Shown piece by piece: positions 1 to 10,925 of a DNA stretch of 10,925 nucleotides (within the stretch, counting starts at the first letter, position 1; every line of letters starts with the position of its first letter). Made by a program: the position numbers and the translations under genes. The notes under the pieces were generated by a model. It made no database searches. It saw only the letters and a list, made by a program, of their open reading frames with translations, and was not told where the DNA came from. The stretch is from a bacterium (GTDB lineage: Bacteria > Patescibacteriota > Minisyncoccia > Phycocordibacterales > Zambryskibacteraceae): contig JAUSGI010000001.1 in NCBI GenBank assembly GCA_030649135.1, forward strand, positions 1-10,925, in the 5' to 3' direction.

Positions 1-84
1 TGTGAGCCTACGGTAAACTCAATGACAAGGACTAAGTCGTAACAAGGCACGGGTAGCGGAAGCTGCTCGTGGAGTAATTCAATT
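1..84 (+). rRNA. rrs: 16S rRNA, 3'-terminal fragment (the gene continues upstream of the window)
   Basis: Contains AAGTCGTAACAAGG, the complement of the universal 1492R site. Next comes CACGGGTAGC-GGAA-GCTGCTCGTG, a 10-bp helix with a GGAA tetraloop homologous to 16S helix 45, maintained by compensatory base changes. TGGA then follows, as in the canonical ...TGGATCACCTCCTTA terminus. Seen directly; the homology is by eye against the E. coli 3' end from memory. Confidence 0.75.
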
Positions 85-93
85 TGAAATCGT

Positions 94-109
94 TGTCTCG
101 ATAGAGACA
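94..109 (+). other. Perfect 6-bp hairpin (TGTCTC-GATA-GAGACA) in the 16S 3' trailer; possible processing stem
   Basis: Inverted repeat seen directly. A second GNRA hairpin, TTCAAC-GCAA-GTTGAA, lies at about 148-163. The function is inferred. Confidence 0.3.
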
Positions 110-221
110 GCTTATAGTGTCGATATTTCAACGCAAGTTGAAGTGGACAATTGCGCCAGTCCTAAAAGACGCATGACAATACGGAAAGACGTTACGGAAC
201 AAAATAGAGAACGATATTAAG

Positions 222-2246: not shown

Positions 2247-2290
2247 CGCCCGGCACCCACGCAAGTGAGTGCCGGGCGGTTTTGTTTTTT
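2247..2290 (+). terminator. Strong rho-independent terminator
   Basis: CGCCCGGCAC (2247-2256) pairs perfectly with GTGCCGGGCG (2269-2278) as a 10-bp stem with a 12-nt loop. GTTTTGTTTTTT follows. Confidence 0.85.
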
Positions 2291-2292
2291 GT

Positions 2293-2300
2293 TGTATAAT
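2293..2300 (+). promoter_or_regulatory. TGTATAAT extended -10-like element 7 nt upstream of the ATPase ATG; a leaderless configuration, and a direct repeat of 1837-1844
   Basis: The 8-mer is identical to the one in the consensus promoter at 1837-1844. There is no good -35 upstream, because that region is the terminator stem. Confidence 0.4.
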
Positions 2301-2307
2301 TAGCGCG

Positions 2308-3978
2308 ATGGCAGATTCGCCAAAAGACCAAGTAATATATTTTGCCGAGACAGACTCGCGTAATAACCGCAAGAAGTTTGGAATTAAGACCGAAGATCGC
2401 TCCAAACATGTCTATGTCATAGGTAAGACCGGCATGGGCAAGTCCACGCTTCTTGAGAACATGGCTATTCAGGATATTCAAAATGGCAACGGTATTGCTT
2501 TCATCGACCCTCATGGCGGTACGGCAGAAAAACTTTTGGATTTTGTGCCCAAAGAGCGCATCAAGGATGTGTTGTATTTCGCTCCTTTTGATACTGAATA
2601 TCCGGTTGCCTTTAACGTCATGGAAGATGTCGGCGCCAACAAACGGCATCTAGTAGTCAGCGGTCTTATGAGCGCCTTCATGAAGCTCTTCGGGGAAGAG
2701 AGTTTTTCCGACAGAATGCAGTACATTCTCCAGAATACCATTCTTGCTCTTCTTGAGTATCCCGGTTCGACCATGCTCGGTATCAATAAAATGCTCGTTG
2801 ATAAGGAATATCGAAAAAATGTAATAGCGAATATTACTGATCCGTCGGTTAAGGCCTATTGGACACAGGAATATGCCGGTTACACAGAACGTTTCGCCGC
2901 AGAAGCTATACCCGCCATTCAGAACAAGATAGGCCAGTTCACATCAAATCCACTCATCAGAAATATCATTGGTCAAGAGAAATCCAGTTTCAATCTTCGA
3001 AAAATCATGGACGAGAAGAAGATTGTAATCGTCAATCTTTCCAAAGGCCGCGTAGGTGAAGACAATGCCCGCCTGCTTGGCTCGATGTTAATTACCAAAA
3101 TATATCTGGCGGCCATGTCACGCGCCGACGAGCGCGCCTCCTCGCTTGCCAAGCTCCCGCCATTTTTTCTGTACGTAGACGAATTCCAATCATTTGCCGA
3201 CAAGTCCTTCGCCGATATTTTGTCGGAAGCTCGCAAATATAAACTCAACCTGACCATGGCTCATATGTATATAGAACAGATGGAAGAAGAAGTGCGCGAT
3301 GCCGTCTTCGGCAACGTCGGCACCATGATAGTCTTCCGCGTGGGGGCTTACGACGCCGATGTATTGGAAAAGGAATTTGCCCCGGTTTTTATTGCAGAGG
3401 ATTTGGTCAACTTGGGATTGCGCCAAATCTACCTCAAACTGATGATAGACTCGGTGGCATCGCCGCCATTCTCCGCCACCACCATGCCGCCAATGCAGTC
3501 TTCAGAGGTTTCCCACACGGAGGAAATTATAGAATATTCTCGCAAGACCTTCGCCCAGCCAAGAAGTGAGGTTGAGAAACGTATCACCGACTGGCATGAA
3601 GCAGGCCGAGTGGCGGTAAAGACCGCTCCGCCCAGAGTGTTTAGCGCGCCTCCGATAGTTAAACCACAGGAGAAAAGACCGATAGAGAAAGTAATCTTAC
3701 CTGTCATGCCCGCGCATGCAGGGCAGGTAGGGAGTAAAATAGAACCCAAACCGCTTCCAAGCATTTCTCTCGAAACTCTGAAAAAGAGCACTGATAATCA
3801 GCGCAAGCCGGACGCCAAGCATGTCGCTGACCTGCGAGATGCGCTCAGAGCCATGACAGGGAATCAGCCGAAGCTAGAGACACCACCCCAGCCTCAAGTA
3901 CAACCGGTACACCCCCAGCCGACCATAAAGAAGGAACCTAGTCAGGAAGAGCTCAAAAAAATCCTCGATGTCCAATAA
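2308..3978 (+). CDS. TraG/VirD4/TrwB-like (type IV coupling-protein-like) P-loop ATPase with no N-terminal TM segment and a Pro/Gln-rich disordered C-terminal tail
   Basis: Walker A is VIGKTGMGKST, followed by IAFIDPHGG. Walker B is FFLYVDEFQSF, then NVGTMIVFRVG. This pattern is typical of the VirD4/TraG/DUF87 ATPase family. The start is taken as ATG 2308 (MADSPKDQ...) rather than the track's GTG 2269, which lies inside the terminator hairpin. The stop TAA at 3976-3978 overlaps the next gene. Confidence 0.8.
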   Translation: MADSPKDQVIYFAETDSRNNRKKFGIKTEDRSKHVYVIGKTGMGKSTLLENMAIQDIQNGNGIAFIDPHGGTAEKLLDFVPKERIKDVLYFAPFDTEYPVAFNVMEDVGANKRHLVVSGLMSAFMKLFGEESFSDRMQYILQNTILALLEYPGSTMLGINKMLVDKEYRKNVIANITDPSVKAYWTQEYAGYTERFAAEAIPAIQNKIGQFTSNPLIRNIIGQEKSSFNLRKIMDEKKIVIVNLSKGRVGEDNARLLGSMLITKIYLAAMSRADERASSLAKLPPFFLYVDEFQSFADKSFADILSEARKYKLNLTMAHMYIEQMEEEVRDAVFGNVGTMIVFRVGAYDADVLEKEFAPVFIAEDLVNLGLRQIYLKLMIDSVASPPFSATTMPPMQSSEVSHTEEIIEYSRKTFAQPRSEVEKRITDWHEAGRVAVKTAPPRVFSAPPIVKPQEKRPIEKVILPVMPAHAGQVGSKIEPKPLPSISLETLKKSTDNQRKPDAKHVADLRDALRAMTGNQPKLETPPQPQVQPVHPQPTIKKEPSQEELKKILDVQ

Positions 3979-7196: not shown

Positions 7197-7443
7197 AACA
7201 GGGAAGCTGTGGATAAGTATAAGATATTAGAAATTAAATCAACATAGCCATAATAGTCATAAGAATGGGTCAATGCACATTATGAATATAATTATAAAGG
7301 TTTTTCTTAATAAAATTAAAATAGTTTATTAAGGTTTAATAATGTTTGTAAATCTTTCTACTCGGACTTAAAAAGCATAAGTTCACTACTTTTTGAGTCT
7401 TCATTCTATCCTTATTTTATAAGGCATTTTACCAATTTTTACT

Positions 7444-7470: not shown

Positions 7471-10400
7471 TTGAAAGCCCAAAGATTGCTAGCAACTGGA
7501 TTGAGCGGTTTTATAATCGGAATTTTGGTTCTCAGTTTTTTAGGGGTATCTTTAAATAAGGTTTTTGCGGCGGGACCACCCTCAATTTTGAGCTATCAAG
7601 GTCGCCTTACTAATGCTTCAGGAAGTCTTCTTGGTGGTTCATCCGGAACTACTTTCTATTTCAAATTTTCAATATGGAGTGCTGCTAGTGGCGGGGCAAA
7701 GCTCTGGCCAGCATCCGACCCGACATCTTATGGCATTACGGTCAGAGAAGGCGTATTCAATGTAAATATTGGCGACACTACGAATGGTTATCCAGATACG
7801 CTTAATTATGATTTCTCGACGAGCACGAATGTATTTTTAAAGGTTGAAGTTTCTGATGATGATGTTGATTTTGAAACTCTCACTCCGCGACAGCAAATCA
7901 ATTCTGTCGCTTTTGCTCAAGTGGCGGGGGCGGTAGTTAGTGCATCTTCCACCATCGCCAATCTCACTGGTACTAACGCCACTACTACCAATGCTACTTC
8001 CACAAATTTCTTTAGTACTACAGCATCTTCAACAAATCTTTTTTCTGCCGCCATAACTTCAGGCTCTGCTATCTTTGCGAATCTTTTGGTAACCAGCTCA
8101 TCAACGCTCCAAAATTTCACTTTCACAAATGCTACAGGAACTTCCGCTACTACGACCAATCTCTTCTCCACCACTGCATCATCTTCCAACTTATTCACGG
8201 CATTATTCAACGGCGCTGGGTTAGCCACTTGCCAATCGAACAACGTCCTCACCTGGTCTGGTGGTATTTTCGGTTGCGAAACGGACGACAACACCTTCGC
8301 ATGGACTCCCATCTCTTACGGTACTCAAAACGTAGTTGCGACATCGACCGGCCTCTGGCTCAAAGGCTCACCTCTAGGCTTAGTTGCTTCTTCTACTTTC
8401 GCCACTTACTCCACCTCGACCAATGCCACCTCGACTAACTTTTTCTCTACTATCGCTTCGTCTACCAGTCTTTTCACATCAGCTTTGACCGTGAATGGCT
8501 TCGCCTTCACGGTCAATGGCGCTCCCACTTTGAACGACTGGTTCGACCAGTCCCTTAAGATCTCGGACGGGCCCGCTTTTTCCACTATCGATACTGGCCA
8601 TGGGGGTAATGAGCTCTATGCTATGGACCAAAACGTTCGGATCTCCGACGACGTAATCTTCGACGAACTCTTGCTAACCGGTTCTTCCACTTTGAGAAAT
8701 TTCACCTTCTTAAACGCCACCGGCACTTCCGCTACTACCACTAACTTCTTCGCCACGAATGCAAGTTCGACAAATCTCTTTACTACTCGACTTGGCATTG
8801 GCACTTCAAACCCCAGCAGTGCTCTAGAAGTTAATGGTGATATTCGTATCACCGCGAATTCCGGAGGGCGTCTCTACTTTAGTGATAGTTCCACACAAAA
8901 TAGTGCAATCGTGTCGGGAAGTGGTATTACAAGTTGGAGCGACTTGAATTTTCAAACCGGCGGAATCATGAACTTCCAAACCGGTAATGGTCTCGGCACC
9001 GCTACCACTACTCATATGGTTTTGGCTAATAACGGTAATATCGGGATTGGTACCACAACCCCAGGCACCCCGCTTGCTGTCACCGGTGCCGGAGTATTTA
9101 CTGGGTTAGTGACGGCACCCTTTTTCAATGCCACTTCTACAACCGATGTTTCTAATTTCCAACAAGTTCTCGTCCTTGCTTCCTCCACTCTTCAAAACTT
9201 TACTTTCTTAAACGCCACCGGCACTTCTGCTACTACCACTAGCTTCTTTGCTACTGTTTTAAATGCTACTACTGCTTCCACCACTAATCTTTTAGTAACC
9301 AGCTCATCAACGCTCCAAAATTTCACTTTCACAAATGCTACAGGAACTTCCGCCACCACCACCAATCTTTTCTCCACCACCGCATCATCTTCCAACTTAT
9401 TCACAGCATTATTCAACGGTGCCGGTCTTGCCACCTGCCAAACCAACAACGTCCTCACCTGGTCTGGTGGTATTTTCGGTTGCGAAACGGACGACAACAC
9501 CTTCGCATGGACTCCCACCTCTTACGGTACTCAAAACGTAGTTGCGACATCGACCGGTTTATGGCTCAAAGGTTCGCCTCTAGGCTTAATTGCCTCTTCT
9601 ACTTTCGCCACTTACTCCACCTCGACCAATGCTACTTCTACTAATTTCTTTGCCACCACGGCTTCATCCACTAGTCTTTTCGCAGCGGTCTTATCATCAG
9701 GCTCCGCCACCCTCGGCGATCTTTTACTTAACAGCTCATCGACACTCCAAAACTTTACTTTCCTAAATGCTACTGGCACTAACGCTACCACTACCAATAT
9801 TTTCTCCACCACTGCTTCTTCTACTAATCTTTTCACCGCTCTTTTCAATGGCGCTGGTCTTGCTACCTGCCAGACCAACAACATGCTCACTTGGGCTGGA
9901 GGAACATTCGGTTGCGAGGTTGATAATGATACCTTCGAATGGACTCCCACCGCTTGGGGCAACTCTACTTCCACCACTCTCGGTTTCTCGCAAGGTTTCC
10001 TCTCTACCGCTTCTTCTACCATAGACTCCAACTTGATTATCACTGGTAACTCCACTACTACCAACGCCACCACTACCAATATTTTCTCCACCACCGCATC
10101 ATCAACCGGTCTTTTTGCAGCGGTTTTATCATCAGGCTCCGCCACCTTCGGCGATCTTTTAATAAATAGCTCATCGACACTCCAAAACTTTACTTTCTTA
10201 AATGCTACTGGCACTAACGCTACCACTACCAATATTTTCTCCACCACCGCATCCACCACTAACTTCTTTGGTGCTGACTTAACCCCATGTACTTCAAATA
10301 ACGTCTTGACTTGGACAGGGGGGAAGTTTGGCTGTGAAGCAGATGACACCGGTAGTGCCACCTTCGGCAAAGACTGGAACATCTTTACCGTTGGCCGGCT

Positions 10401-10925
10401 TGCCCCGACTACCACAGTGGCTGTTTATGTGGGAGCAACCACCACAGCCTCCCTTACCAACAACTCGTACTTCCAAGTGAATGCGACTTCCACTACTGGA
10501 GACTTAATCGTGGCTTCTTCCTCCCAGGACTTCACTGGCAACTTCTTAAGATTCCTCAATGCCGCTGGTGCAACTCTCTTCTCTGTTGATAATACCGGTT
10601 CTTTGATTGCCGCTTCCACTACTTTCACCAACGCTACCTCGACCAATCTCTTCTCCACCACCGCATCTTCATCGAACCTCTACACCGCTCTCTTTAATGG
10701 CGCCGGTCTTGCCACTTGCCAAACCAACAACGTCCTCACCTGGGCCGGTGGAGAGTTCGGTTGCGAAGCGGATGATAGCGGCAGCGCTGGCTTCGGCAAA
10801 ACTTTTGAAATGTCCAACACCAACTTCCTCGCTCCCACCACCACGGTCTCGGTGATTATCGGCTCCACCACCACCCCGGACAAAAGCGCTTTATTCCAAG
10901 TGAACGCCACCGGCACCACAGGTAA
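7471..10925 (+). CDS. Giant secreted Thr/Ser/Asn-rich tandem-repeat surface protein, 3'-partial (at least 1,151 codons; continues beyond the window)
   Basis: I translated the frame by hand from TTG 7471 (TTG 7486 is an alternative start) to the window end and found no stop codon. The N-terminus, KAQRLLATGLSGFIIGILVLSFLGVSLNKVFA|AG, is a signal peptide. The body consists of repeated modules S-T-L-Q-N-F-T-F-x-N-A-T-G-T-x-A-T-T-T-N-x-F-S-T-T-A-S-S-x-N-L-F followed by A-L-F-N-G-A-G-L-A-T-C-Q-T-N-N-V-L-T-W-x-G-G-x-F-G-C-E-x-D-D. The ORF track omits it because no stop lies in the window and the start is TTG. Confidence 0.85.
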   Translation, partial: MKAQRLLATGLSGFIIGILVLSFLGVSLNKVFAAGPPSILSYQGRLTNASGSLLGGSSGTTFYFKFSIWSAASGGAKLWPASDPTSYGITVREGVFNVNIGDTTNGYPDTLNYDFSTSTNVFLKVEVSDDDVDFETLTPRQQINSVAFAQVAGAVVSASSTIANLTGTNATTTNATSTNFFSTTASSTNLFSAAITSGSAIFANLLVTSSSTLQNFTFTNATGTSATTTNLFSTTASSSNLFTALFNGAGLATCQSNNVLTWSGGIFGCETDDNTFAWTPISYGTQNVVATSTGLWLKGSPLGLVASSTFATYSTSTNATSTNFFSTIASSTSLFTSALTVNGFAFTVNGAPTLNDWFDQSLKISDGPAFSTIDTGHGGNELYAMDQNVRISDDVIFDELLLTGSSTLRNFTFLNATGTSATTTNFFATNASSTNLFTTRLGIGTSNPSSALEVNGDIRITANSGGRLYFSDSSTQNSAIVSGSGITSWSDLNFQTGGIMNFQTGNGLGTATTTHMVLANNGNIGIGTTTPGTPLAVTGAGVFTGLVTAPFFNATSTTDVSNFQQVLVLASSTLQNFTFLNATGTSATTTSFFATVLNATTASTTNLLVTSSSTLQNFTFTNATGTSATTTNLFSTTASSSNLFTALFNGAGLATCQTNNVLTWSGGIFGCETDDNTFAWTPTSYGTQNVVATSTGLWLKGSPLGLIASSTFATYSTSTNATSTNFFATTASSTSLFAAVLSSGSATLGDLLLNSSSTLQNFTFLNATGTNATTTNIFSTTASSTNLFTALFNGAGLATCQTNNMLTWAGGTFGCEVDNDTFEWTPTAWGNSTSTTLGFSQGFLSTASSTIDSNLIITGNSTTTNATTTNIFSTTASSTGLFAAVLSSGSATFGDLLINSSSTLQNFTFLNATGTNATTTNIFSTTASTTNFFGADLTPCTSNNVLTWTGGKFGCEADDTGSATFGKDWNIFTVGRLAPTTTVAVYVGATTTASLTNNSYFQVNATSTTGDLIVASSSQDFTGNFLRFLNAAGATLFSVDNTGSLIAASTTFTNATSTNLFSTTASSSNLYTALFNGAGLATCQTNNVLTWAGGEFGCEADDSGSAGFGKTFEMSNTNFLAPTTTVSVIIGSTTTPDKSALFQVNATGTTG
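8083..8476 (+). repeat. Intragenic direct repeat, copy A (about 390 nt), paired with 9289..9682
   Basis: The offset is exactly 1206 nt with no indels. Roughly nine in ten nucleotides are identical by eye across the compared core (8091-8230 vs 9297-9436). Nearly all differences are synonymous third positions, and the proteins differ at only about 3 of roughly 118 residues. Confidence 0.8.
9289..9682 (+). repeat. Intragenic direct repeat, copy B, paired with 8083..8476
   Basis: See copy A. Confidence 0.8.

Follow-up and report, generated by a model that had tools for sequence, protein, structure and literature searches.

The DNA described here, referred to as the window, is the whole of a 10,925-bp contig (JAUSGI010000001.1) from a metagenome-assembled genome (MAG), and it begins within a 16S rRNA gene. 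The last part of that gene keeps helix 45 and ends in a tail that lacks the CCUCC of the anti-Shine-Dalgarno (anti-SD) sequence. Pairing of the anti-SD with the Shine-Dalgarno (SD) sequence of the mRNA is the textbook way in which start codons are found, and few rRNA sequences are as conserved as the anti-SD. Downstream of the tail lie the 16S precursor trailer, an intrinsic terminator, a convergent tRNA-Ile gene, an open reading frame (ORF) of 85 aa, and genes for a DUF4015 glycoside-hydrolase-like protein and a TraG/VirD4-like ATPase, followed by further genes up to the contig end (Table 1). Homologues of the DUF4015 protein are named as Minisyncoccia, the Parcubacteria group or Candidatus Zambryskibacteria. 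Judged from these homologues, the organism is a Parcubacterium (Candidate Phyla Radiation, CPR; Minisyncoccia/Paceibacteria, near Zambryskibacteria).

The 3' end of the 16S rRNA

Positions 1–84 of the plus strand align with positions 1450–1533 of the Rfam covariance model (CM) SSU_rRNA_bacteria, reaching the 3' end of the model (47.1 bits, E 1.3e-12). The score falls short of the 50-bit gathering score because the fragment is only 84 nt long; complete 16S genes in two related loci, L004 and L033, cover model positions 1–1533 with 1348 and 1354 bits and carry the same tail as the window. The rRNA is neither truncated nor decayed. The universal linker AAGUCGUAACAAGG, read in the window as AAGTCGTAACAAGG, occupies positions 34–47 and leads into helix 45. 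The two strands of the helix, CACGGGTAGC (48–57) and GCTGCTCGTG (62–71), form ten pairs, two of them G.U, and its loop is the usual site of two dimethyl-adenosines.

Relative to the 16S 3' end of E. coli, which served as the reference and is 100% identical across 5426 E. coli genomes, five of the ten pairs of helix 45 have changed and all are still paired, four through changes on both sides and one through a change on one side. The initial annotation had described a kept helix 45 of 10 bp with a GGAA loop, as the sequence and the CM alignment bear out. It had also held that all pairs were kept by compensatory substitutions: all are indeed kept, but only half of them changed at all, and one of these on a single side. 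Across 52 related 16S ends all 520 cells of the helix are paired, with double compensatory changes in five of the ten pairs, and neither shuffled sequences nor slid registers come anywhere near this degree of pairing. The helix of L004 includes a swap from G-C to C-G.

After G71 the window reads GAGUAAUUCAAUUUGAAAUC (beginning GAGTAATTCAATT) and not the canonical G-GAUCACCUCCUUA, so that the GAUCACCUCCUUA-type tail with its CCUCC is missing. In a gap-free alignment with canonical ends the CCUCC columns are occupied by AUUCA (77–81), giving a tail of GAGUAAUUCAAUU in which U79 and C80 are the counterparts of U1537 and C1538. In our alignment A1 of 16S ends the U (column 38) is invariant and the C (column 39) at least 90% conserved. 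CCTCC is absent from both strands at all positions before 1524 of the window, which extends the earlier observation that the canonical anti-SD is missing and that no CCTCC occurs in positions 1–250.

The tail and the UC following it (72–91) are identical in six related lineages. The initial annotation had named a canonical end, GGAUCACCUCCUU, as evidence that would speak against the loss; no such end occurs in the six lineages, all of which carry GGAGTAATTCAATTTGAAATC past helix 45. Among 15 distinct sequences of the window type the 18 nt past helix 45 are conserved, after which the sequences diverge freely. In canonical relatives 16 nt are conserved, which is exactly the Bacillus-type mature end, and by analogy with this length the mature 16S rRNA of the window probably ends near positions 87–89.

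A short palindrome of the form UYC-AAWWU-GRA is found in the tails, with the copy of the window at 78–88. Most non-canonical tails (L039–L158) contain a version of it, such as UUC-AAUUU-GAA, UCC-AAUUU-GGA, GUC-AAUU-GAC or UUUC-AAGGU-GAAA. The hairpin potential of the tails exceeds that of tails whose 3' halves have been shuffled internally (mean stem 3.0 vs 1.9, p<0.0005), but is not above that obtained when 3' halves are swapped among 30 tail families (3.03 vs 2.95, p 0.30). A covarying terminal mini-hairpin (UUC/GAA in the window type, UCC/GGA or GUC/GAC in others) was rejected given the lack of excess over family swaps and its marginal place in the fold of the window. The palindrome is a conserved motif and not a demonstrated helix. 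The 16S leaders of L004 (~7720–7740) and L033 (~7380–7400) share a conserved motif, AAAAUUGAAUGAAUUA, which is complementary to GUAAUUCAAUUU of the tail and might sequester the tail in the precursor. This pairing was dropped as a candidate, as leaders from other tail families show no matching element.

Table 1. Positions of the rRNA, tRNA, promoter and gene-junction features in the window (CM, covariance model)
Start	End	Strand	Feature	Basis
1	47	+	End of the 16S 3' minor domain (last part of the helix 44 3' strand, and linker)	CM alignment, sequence
48	71	+	Helix 45, 10-bp stem (48–57/62–71) with GGAA tetraloop (58–61)	Sequence, CM, fold, covariation
72	89	+	Non-canonical single-stranded 3' tail, GAGUAAUUCAAUUUGAAA	Conservation among relatives, alignment
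92	111	+	Trailer hairpin 1 of the precursor, GUUGUCUC-GAUA-GAGACAGC	Fold
112	124	+	Conserved trailer box, UUAUAGUGUCGAU	Comparison of relatives
124	145	+	Trailer hairpin 2, UUUCAAC-GCAA-GUUGAAG	Fold
194	216	+	3' strand of the processing stem in the 16S precursor, ACGGAACAAAAUAGAGAACGAUA	Leader/trailer co-fold in L004, L033
217	246	.	Intrinsic terminator hairpin, AAAACCGCCGCAAGGCGGUUUUC, with T run	Fold; weak Rfam terminator-like matches
253	326	-	tRNA-Ile(GAT), convergent with 16S, shares terminator 217–246	tRNA prediction, comparison
375	391	+	Extended -10 box TGGTATAAT; TATAAT 375–380, 8 nt, ATG 389	Sequence; orthologous starts
644	650	+	Stop/start junction without SD, TGA-C-ATG; gene 648 starts 1 nt after the stop	
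2295	2310	+	-10 box TTGTATAAT; TATAAT 2295–2300, 7 nt, ATG 2308	Sequence; orthologues
3968	3978	+	Junction 3968/3978, 11-nt overlap with the upstream gene	
5062	5065	+	Junction 5062/5065, start 2 nt after the stop	
6066	6069	+	Junction 6066/6069, ATGA overlap	

Trailer, terminator and tRNA-Ile

The position of trailer hairpin 1 holds a hairpin in the relatives as well, with different sequence and length, and the GUCGAU of the trailer box (119–124) recurs in most families of non-canonical tail. In the relatives the partner of the processing-stem strand is UAUCGUUUUCUCUUUUGUUCCGU, located just upstream of the 16S 5' end; the leader of the window itself lies outside the window. A leader box UUUYGUYYCG pairs with a trailer box CGRRACRAAA (window 194–216) in 22 of 25 full-length loci with non-canonical tails and in none of nine canonical ones. 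The terminator ends the 16S transcript and, on the other strand, that of the convergent tRNA. The trailer of the window, with its two hairpins and terminator, folds with z = -5.8 against shuffles. On these predicted trailer and terminator structures, the 16S gene is a stand-alone transcription unit with no 23S rRNA gene after it. The tRNA-Ile gene is co-directional with 16S in L002, L004, L031–L038 and most window-type metagenome loci.

These features bear on whether the 3' end is real: the fragment could come from an rRNA pseudogene, or the end of the contig could be chimeric or hold a sequencing error. The start of the contig inside the 16S gene is compatible with such an artefact, as are the inversion of the tRNA-Ile gene relative to most relatives and the break of an independent Logan contig (L001) inside the tRNA of the window. 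However, the tRNA is inverted in L056 and L070 as well, helix 45 covaries, and the trailer retains its processing box and terminator. The identical tail is present in at least six independent assemblies, in the 15 distinct window-type metagenome sequences, and in complete 16S genes. An artefact or a decayed gene is thus extremely unlikely, and positions 1 to ~89 are taken as a genuine 16S 3' end.

Relatives and spread of the loss

The six related lineages were found through the DUF4015 protein (73–80% amino acid identity) in independent NCBI, ENA, JGI and Logan assemblies. Their shared gene order is 16S, trailer, terminator, tRNA-Ile, an ORF of ~85 aa, DUF4015, the TraG-like ATPase, and then glycosyltransferases. 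A full rrs gene sought through the DUF4015 protein of the window itself yielded only the 2.9-kb Logan contig L001, which starts inside the tRNA. A search of genome contigs with the pattern GGAAGN9GGAGTAATTCAA gave 26 matches that were taken as chance: five that were inspected (L005, L006, L012, L018, L024) contain no rRNA, and the rest are in unrelated phyla. Evidently, species-representative CPR MAGs seldom carry this 16S end.

Metagenomes were also scanned with a pattern that fixes the end of helix 44 and the universal linker but sets no condition on the tail. This gave 120 loci, 116 of them readable past helix 45. No CCUCC is present in the tail of 98 of the 116, and the other 18 carry GGAUCACCUCCUUUCUA. 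The non-canonical tails fall into ~30 families, for example GGAGUAAUUCAAUUUGAAA (the window type), GGAACAUAUCCAAUUUGGAA, GGAAUAUUUCAAGGUGAAAA and GGAGUAUGUCAAUUGAC. U1537 is kept in all families and C1538 in nearly all, while CCUCC has lost its first two C's. The pattern of leader and trailer boxes points to one clade and probably to a single ancient loss. The canonical-tail loci (L039, L040, L047, L060, L083, L087, L097, L100 and others) often have GGGAG after GGAUCACCUCCUUUCUA, which is able to pair with the anti-SD in the precursor.

As is typical of CPR, the 16S genes of the relatives bear introns and insertions. In L002 (208–980) a group I intron that contains a LAGLIDADG ORF interrupts AAGUCGUA^ACAAGG, at E. 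coli position ~1506. Insertions with LAGLIDADG ORFs are located at ~470–1340 in L031, ~740–1570 in L035 and 4924–7825 in L034, and a GIY-YIG ORF lies directly downstream of tRNA-Ile in L031 and L032.

With insertions so frequent in this clade (the group I intron of L002, others in L031, L034 and L035), an intron or insertion after helix 45 might have displaced a true 3' exon with CCUCC further downstream. Yet no intron model matches positions 1–400 of the window at E values up to 10, and the nearest CCTCC would lie no earlier than 1524, whereas the leader-pairing strand and the terminator follow within ~130 nt of the tail. Moreover, the 3' exon of L002, past its group I intron, ends in the same non-canonical tail. 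A displaced anti-SD was rejected on these grounds and is barely credible.

Shine-Dalgarno usage

For every ATG at the head of an open frame of 80 codons or more, upstream SD-core words (GGAG, GAGG, AGGA) were counted by distance, and distances 5–10 were compared with 15–32; no gene caller was used. The ratio is 0.59 in window-type loci (194 kb) and 1.13 in all non-canonical loci (547 kb; p 0.07, not significant), compared with 2.30 (p 1.6e-10) for 88 kb of unrelated bacteria under the same script. Canonical-tail loci had been intended as the positive control for SD. There is no SD peak in them (0.92-fold in 131 kb, a small sample whose relationship to the clade of the window is not established), and unrelated bacteria (L008–L029) were used instead. 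Among 80 called genes of six window-type lineages only five have an SD core 4–12 nt upstream, at or below chance. The upstream regions are A-rich and G-poor, and compared with shuffles they have no excess duplex stability with either the canonical tail (z -0.13) or the clade's own tail (z -0.42).

The initial annotation had proposed that this small-subunit rRNA is unable to pair with SD sequences, and both the missing CCUCC and the lack of SD enrichment support it. Enrichment of SD motifs, which it had named as contrary evidence, is absent from the clade in this sample of 16S-adjacent loci. Its remark that genes 648, 3968, 5065, 6066 and 7471 have no convincing SD holds, and the overlap of several starts with the upstream stop is confirmed for 3968 and 6066, with 648 and 5065 starting 1–2 nt past the stop.

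Alternatively, the new tail (GUAAUUCAAUUUGAAA) might itself serve as an anti-SD, its partner being a non-canonical SD that evolved along with it. The conservation of 18 nt of tail within the family would fit such a function, as would the retention of U1537 in all and C1538 in nearly all tail families. However, no upstream motif answers to it: beside the z of -0.42, 5-mers complementary to the tail are present in 33 of 80 upstream regions, compared with 95 of 230 controls from gene interiors, and many of the mRNAs would offer no leader for pairing. A survey by Amin et al. (PMC6107228) likewise found no pair of variant SD and variant anti-SD in 128 organisms without an anti-SD. The candidate was rejected, and is very unlikely to be correct.

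A few genes with textbook SDs do occur in relatives without an anti-SD. In L004 a response-regulator gene (2388) has GGGGGAGG 7 nt before its ATG, and in L031 a NUDIX gene (5545, minus strand) has AAGGAG; these may be recent acquisitions or chance.

The window has a comparable gene in a cassette (1815–2290) between the DUF4015 and TraG-like genes that is missing from five related lineages. Its promoter is a perfect TTGACA-17-TATAAT (1816–1844), followed by a leader of ~47 nt and a canonical SD, AAGGAG (1879–1884), located 7 nt before ATG 1892, so that an SD-led gene is present despite a ribosome without an anti-SD. The gene is an orphan ORF of 114 aa with higher GC content, for which a homologue search returned only itself and one other Parcubacteria MAG, and an intrinsic terminator follows at ~2249–2290.

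Promoter positions and gene junctions

The 85-aa ORF (389–646) is predicted to have a leaderless start or one with a 1-nt leader, its ATG being preceded by an extended -10 box. Its orthologues in L004, L033 and L035 have TATAAT 6–7 nt before the ATG. The TraG/VirD4-like gene was called mechanically as ORF 2269–3978, and its orthologues in L002, L004, L031, L033 and L035 all read TTGTATAAT-N7-ATG. The real start is almost certainly the predicted leaderless ATG 2308, and the mechanical GTG 2269 wrong.

The motif TAnAAT ending 6–8 nt before ATG is enriched 8.2-fold in window-type loci (p 1.5e-15, a value inflated by orthology) and 5.6-fold in all non-canonical loci (p 1e-16), compared with a non-significant 2.1-fold in the control. 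The canonical-tail loci also have an ATG-proximal -10 peak (4.7-fold, p 0.002), with the reservations on sample size and relationship noted above. Among 30 operon-first genes, 16 have TAnnnT at 5–9 nt, and every one of these starts is ATG. A -10 box 6–8 nt before the AUG would place the transcription start at or next to the start codon, and the mRNA would therefore be leaderless.

Neighbouring genes on the same strand are tightly packed. Overlaps, mostly by 4 or 11 nt, account for 25 of 64 junctions, and a further 16 have spacers of 1–3 nt.

Two credible TTG starts, gene 7471 of the window and 17479 of L004, are located 18–20 nt from a -10 box behind a short leader without an SD, which in gene 7471 is ~12 nt long. 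Gene 7471 (7471–10925, plus strand) encodes a very large secreted or surface protein of more than 1150 aa that runs off the contig end. The protein has a signal-anchor-like N-terminus and long, near-identical internal repeats rich in Ser, Thr and Asn, and identical hairpin-like strings occur at 8249 and 9455. Long ORFs on the minus strand over the same region are shadows of this repeat protein gene.

These starts are relevant to another possibility, namely that the clade initiates without SD on unstructured, A/U-rich 5' untranslated regions, assisted by bS1 as in Bacteroidia and plastids, with the TATAAT boxes of minor importance. The A-rich, G-poor upstream regions are in keeping with this, as are the ~12-nt leaders and TTG starts of gene 7471 and its L004 orthologue and the 14 of 30 operon-first genes with no -10 box at 5–9 nt, and such a route can coexist with a leaderless one. 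It does not account for a sharp TAnAAT peak (5.6–8.2-fold) at exactly the 6–8 nt spacing expected when transcription starts on the AUG, or for the conservation of this peak at orthologous starts in six lineages. As the principal mode of initiation it is therefore unlikely.

Comparison with known systems

Loss of the anti-SD is already a known trait of about half of the Parcubacteria. The passages of Tsurumaki, Saito, Tomita and Kanai (2022; RNA 28:1041; PMC9297842) on motif presence and absence report that only 48% of 16S genes from Parcubacteria have CCTCCT, note an overlap with lineages lacking uL1, and consider that SD helices do not form there. With its Parcubacteria affiliation and no CCTCCT after helix 45, the window belongs to the same group and is one more example of the loss. 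Those passages do not describe replacement tails, the SD usage of genes or the mode of initiation.

Amin et al. (2018; PMC6107228) found that the 128 organisms without an anti-SD are also without SD motifs, and that no variant pair has evolved. The Weeksellaceae (Chryseobacterium, Elizabethkingia, Riemerella), Blattabacterium, some Mycoplasma and Carsonella retain helix 45 and lack CCUCCU (Lim et al. 2012; PMC6107228), and as in the window there is no SD before their genes and no compensating variant. They belong to different phyla, however, and the Flavobacteriia background is one of sequestered anti-SD and A-rich leaders, not of ATG-proximal promoters. Initiation of the Bacteroidia type, where the anti-SD is kept but sequestered, does not describe the window, whose 16S has no canonical CCUCC.

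A closer parallel is found in Nanoarchaeia, which according to a 2024 survey combine leaderless mRNAs with CCUCC loss (PMC10783764). The proposed logic is the same, in that leaderless first genes relax selection on CCUCC and the promoter box stands at a fixed short distance from the AUG. These are archaea with TATA/BRE promoters, whereas here the box is a bacterial sigma-70-type -10 element. Mycobacterium and Deinococcus are bacteria rich in leaderless genes whose promoter boxes likewise stand at a constant, short spacing from the start codon. The anti-SD is retained in leaderless-rich Actinobacteria and in Deinococcus, while here it is actually lost. Mammalian mitochondrial 12S rRNA retains helix 45 with its dimethyl-A loop, has no anti-SD, and is served by mRNAs that are leaderless or nearly so; the mitochondrial Era homologue binds helix 45 and not CCUCC (PMC10582724). 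Being an organelle system, it works with initiation factors of its own, and the comparison does not imply any relationship in sequence.

Among the publications found, whose incomplete coverage makes this weak evidence of novelty, none ties the Parcubacteria loss to leaderless mRNAs or describes conserved replacement tails. The leaderless signature and the lineage-conserved 18-nt replacement tail may thus be new.

Interpretation

These observations are probably best explained by a functional Parcubacterium 16S end without an anti-SD, acting jointly with SD-free translation (leaderless initiation and coupling) and relaxed selection on CCUCC. The sequences establish what the rRNA is, that CCUCC is lost and how widely relatives share the loss, the lack of an SD signal, and where the -10 boxes lie; leaderless initiation, coupling and relaxed selection are inferred from these. 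The 16S rRNA would be made as its own unit, with helix 45, the tail, two trailer hairpins, the leader-pairing strand of a processing stem, and an intrinsic terminator. SD pairing would play no part in the clade's translation. Promoter-proximal genes would be read from leaderless mRNAs, and on promoter-distal genes ribosomes would initiate again directly after finishing the gene before (termination-reinitiation coupling), in a context of stops and starts that overlap or lie 1–3 nt apart amid A-rich, G-poor sequence. A minor route, independent of SD but dependent on a leader, would operate beside these two.

The assembly GTPase Era binds GAUCACCUCC (PMC10582724), which places a second constraint on this sequence, and Paceibacteria are mostly without era (PMC12641178). 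With no SD partner in the mRNAs and Era mostly missing from the class, selection on CCUCC may have been relaxed, and the tails would then have drifted into family-specific sequences. The canonical-tail relatives suggest that the use of SD was given up before CCUCC decayed, because they too have no SD peak and already have a -10 peak.

Several points weigh against this explanation. About half of the operon-first genes have no well-placed -10 box. Since gene 7471 starts with TTG behind a short SD-less leader, a third route that needs a leader but no SD must exist beside leaderless initiation and coupling. Where transcription starts, where the mature 16S rRNA ends and where translation initiates are deduced from DNA sequence. 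The genes sampled come in part from orthologous regions beside the 16S gene, so that the window-type p-values are inflated and the sample is local, not genome-wide. For this MAG the evidence is a single contig, and a second rrs copy may exist elsewhere in the genome. Finally, simple drift does not explain the conservation of 18 nt of tail.

That conservation, present within each lineage, suggests that the replacement tail is itself under selection, which may be a new finding. The vacated tail may have been recruited to a new role, as a terminal mini-hairpin or as a binding or processing site that replaces the missing Era/anti-SD interaction. The fuller scenario, in which a subclade gave up SD-led initiation for leaderless mRNAs and reinitiation, dropped SD before the anti-SD, and recruited the tail for a new role, is on balance doubtful.

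Significance

Start codons in these genomes will be misplaced by gene callers that rely on SD scores, as in the window, where GTG 2269 was picked over the leaderless ATG 2308, and pipelines that trim 16S at the anti-SD will mis-annotate 3' ends. To the known loss, the present analysis adds a testable proposal for initiation (leaderless and coupled), an order of events, and evidence of selection on the replacement tail. A species-rich CPR branch without an anti-SD would mean that the SD mechanism is dispensable in free-standing bacteria, and not just in organelles and a few symbionts.

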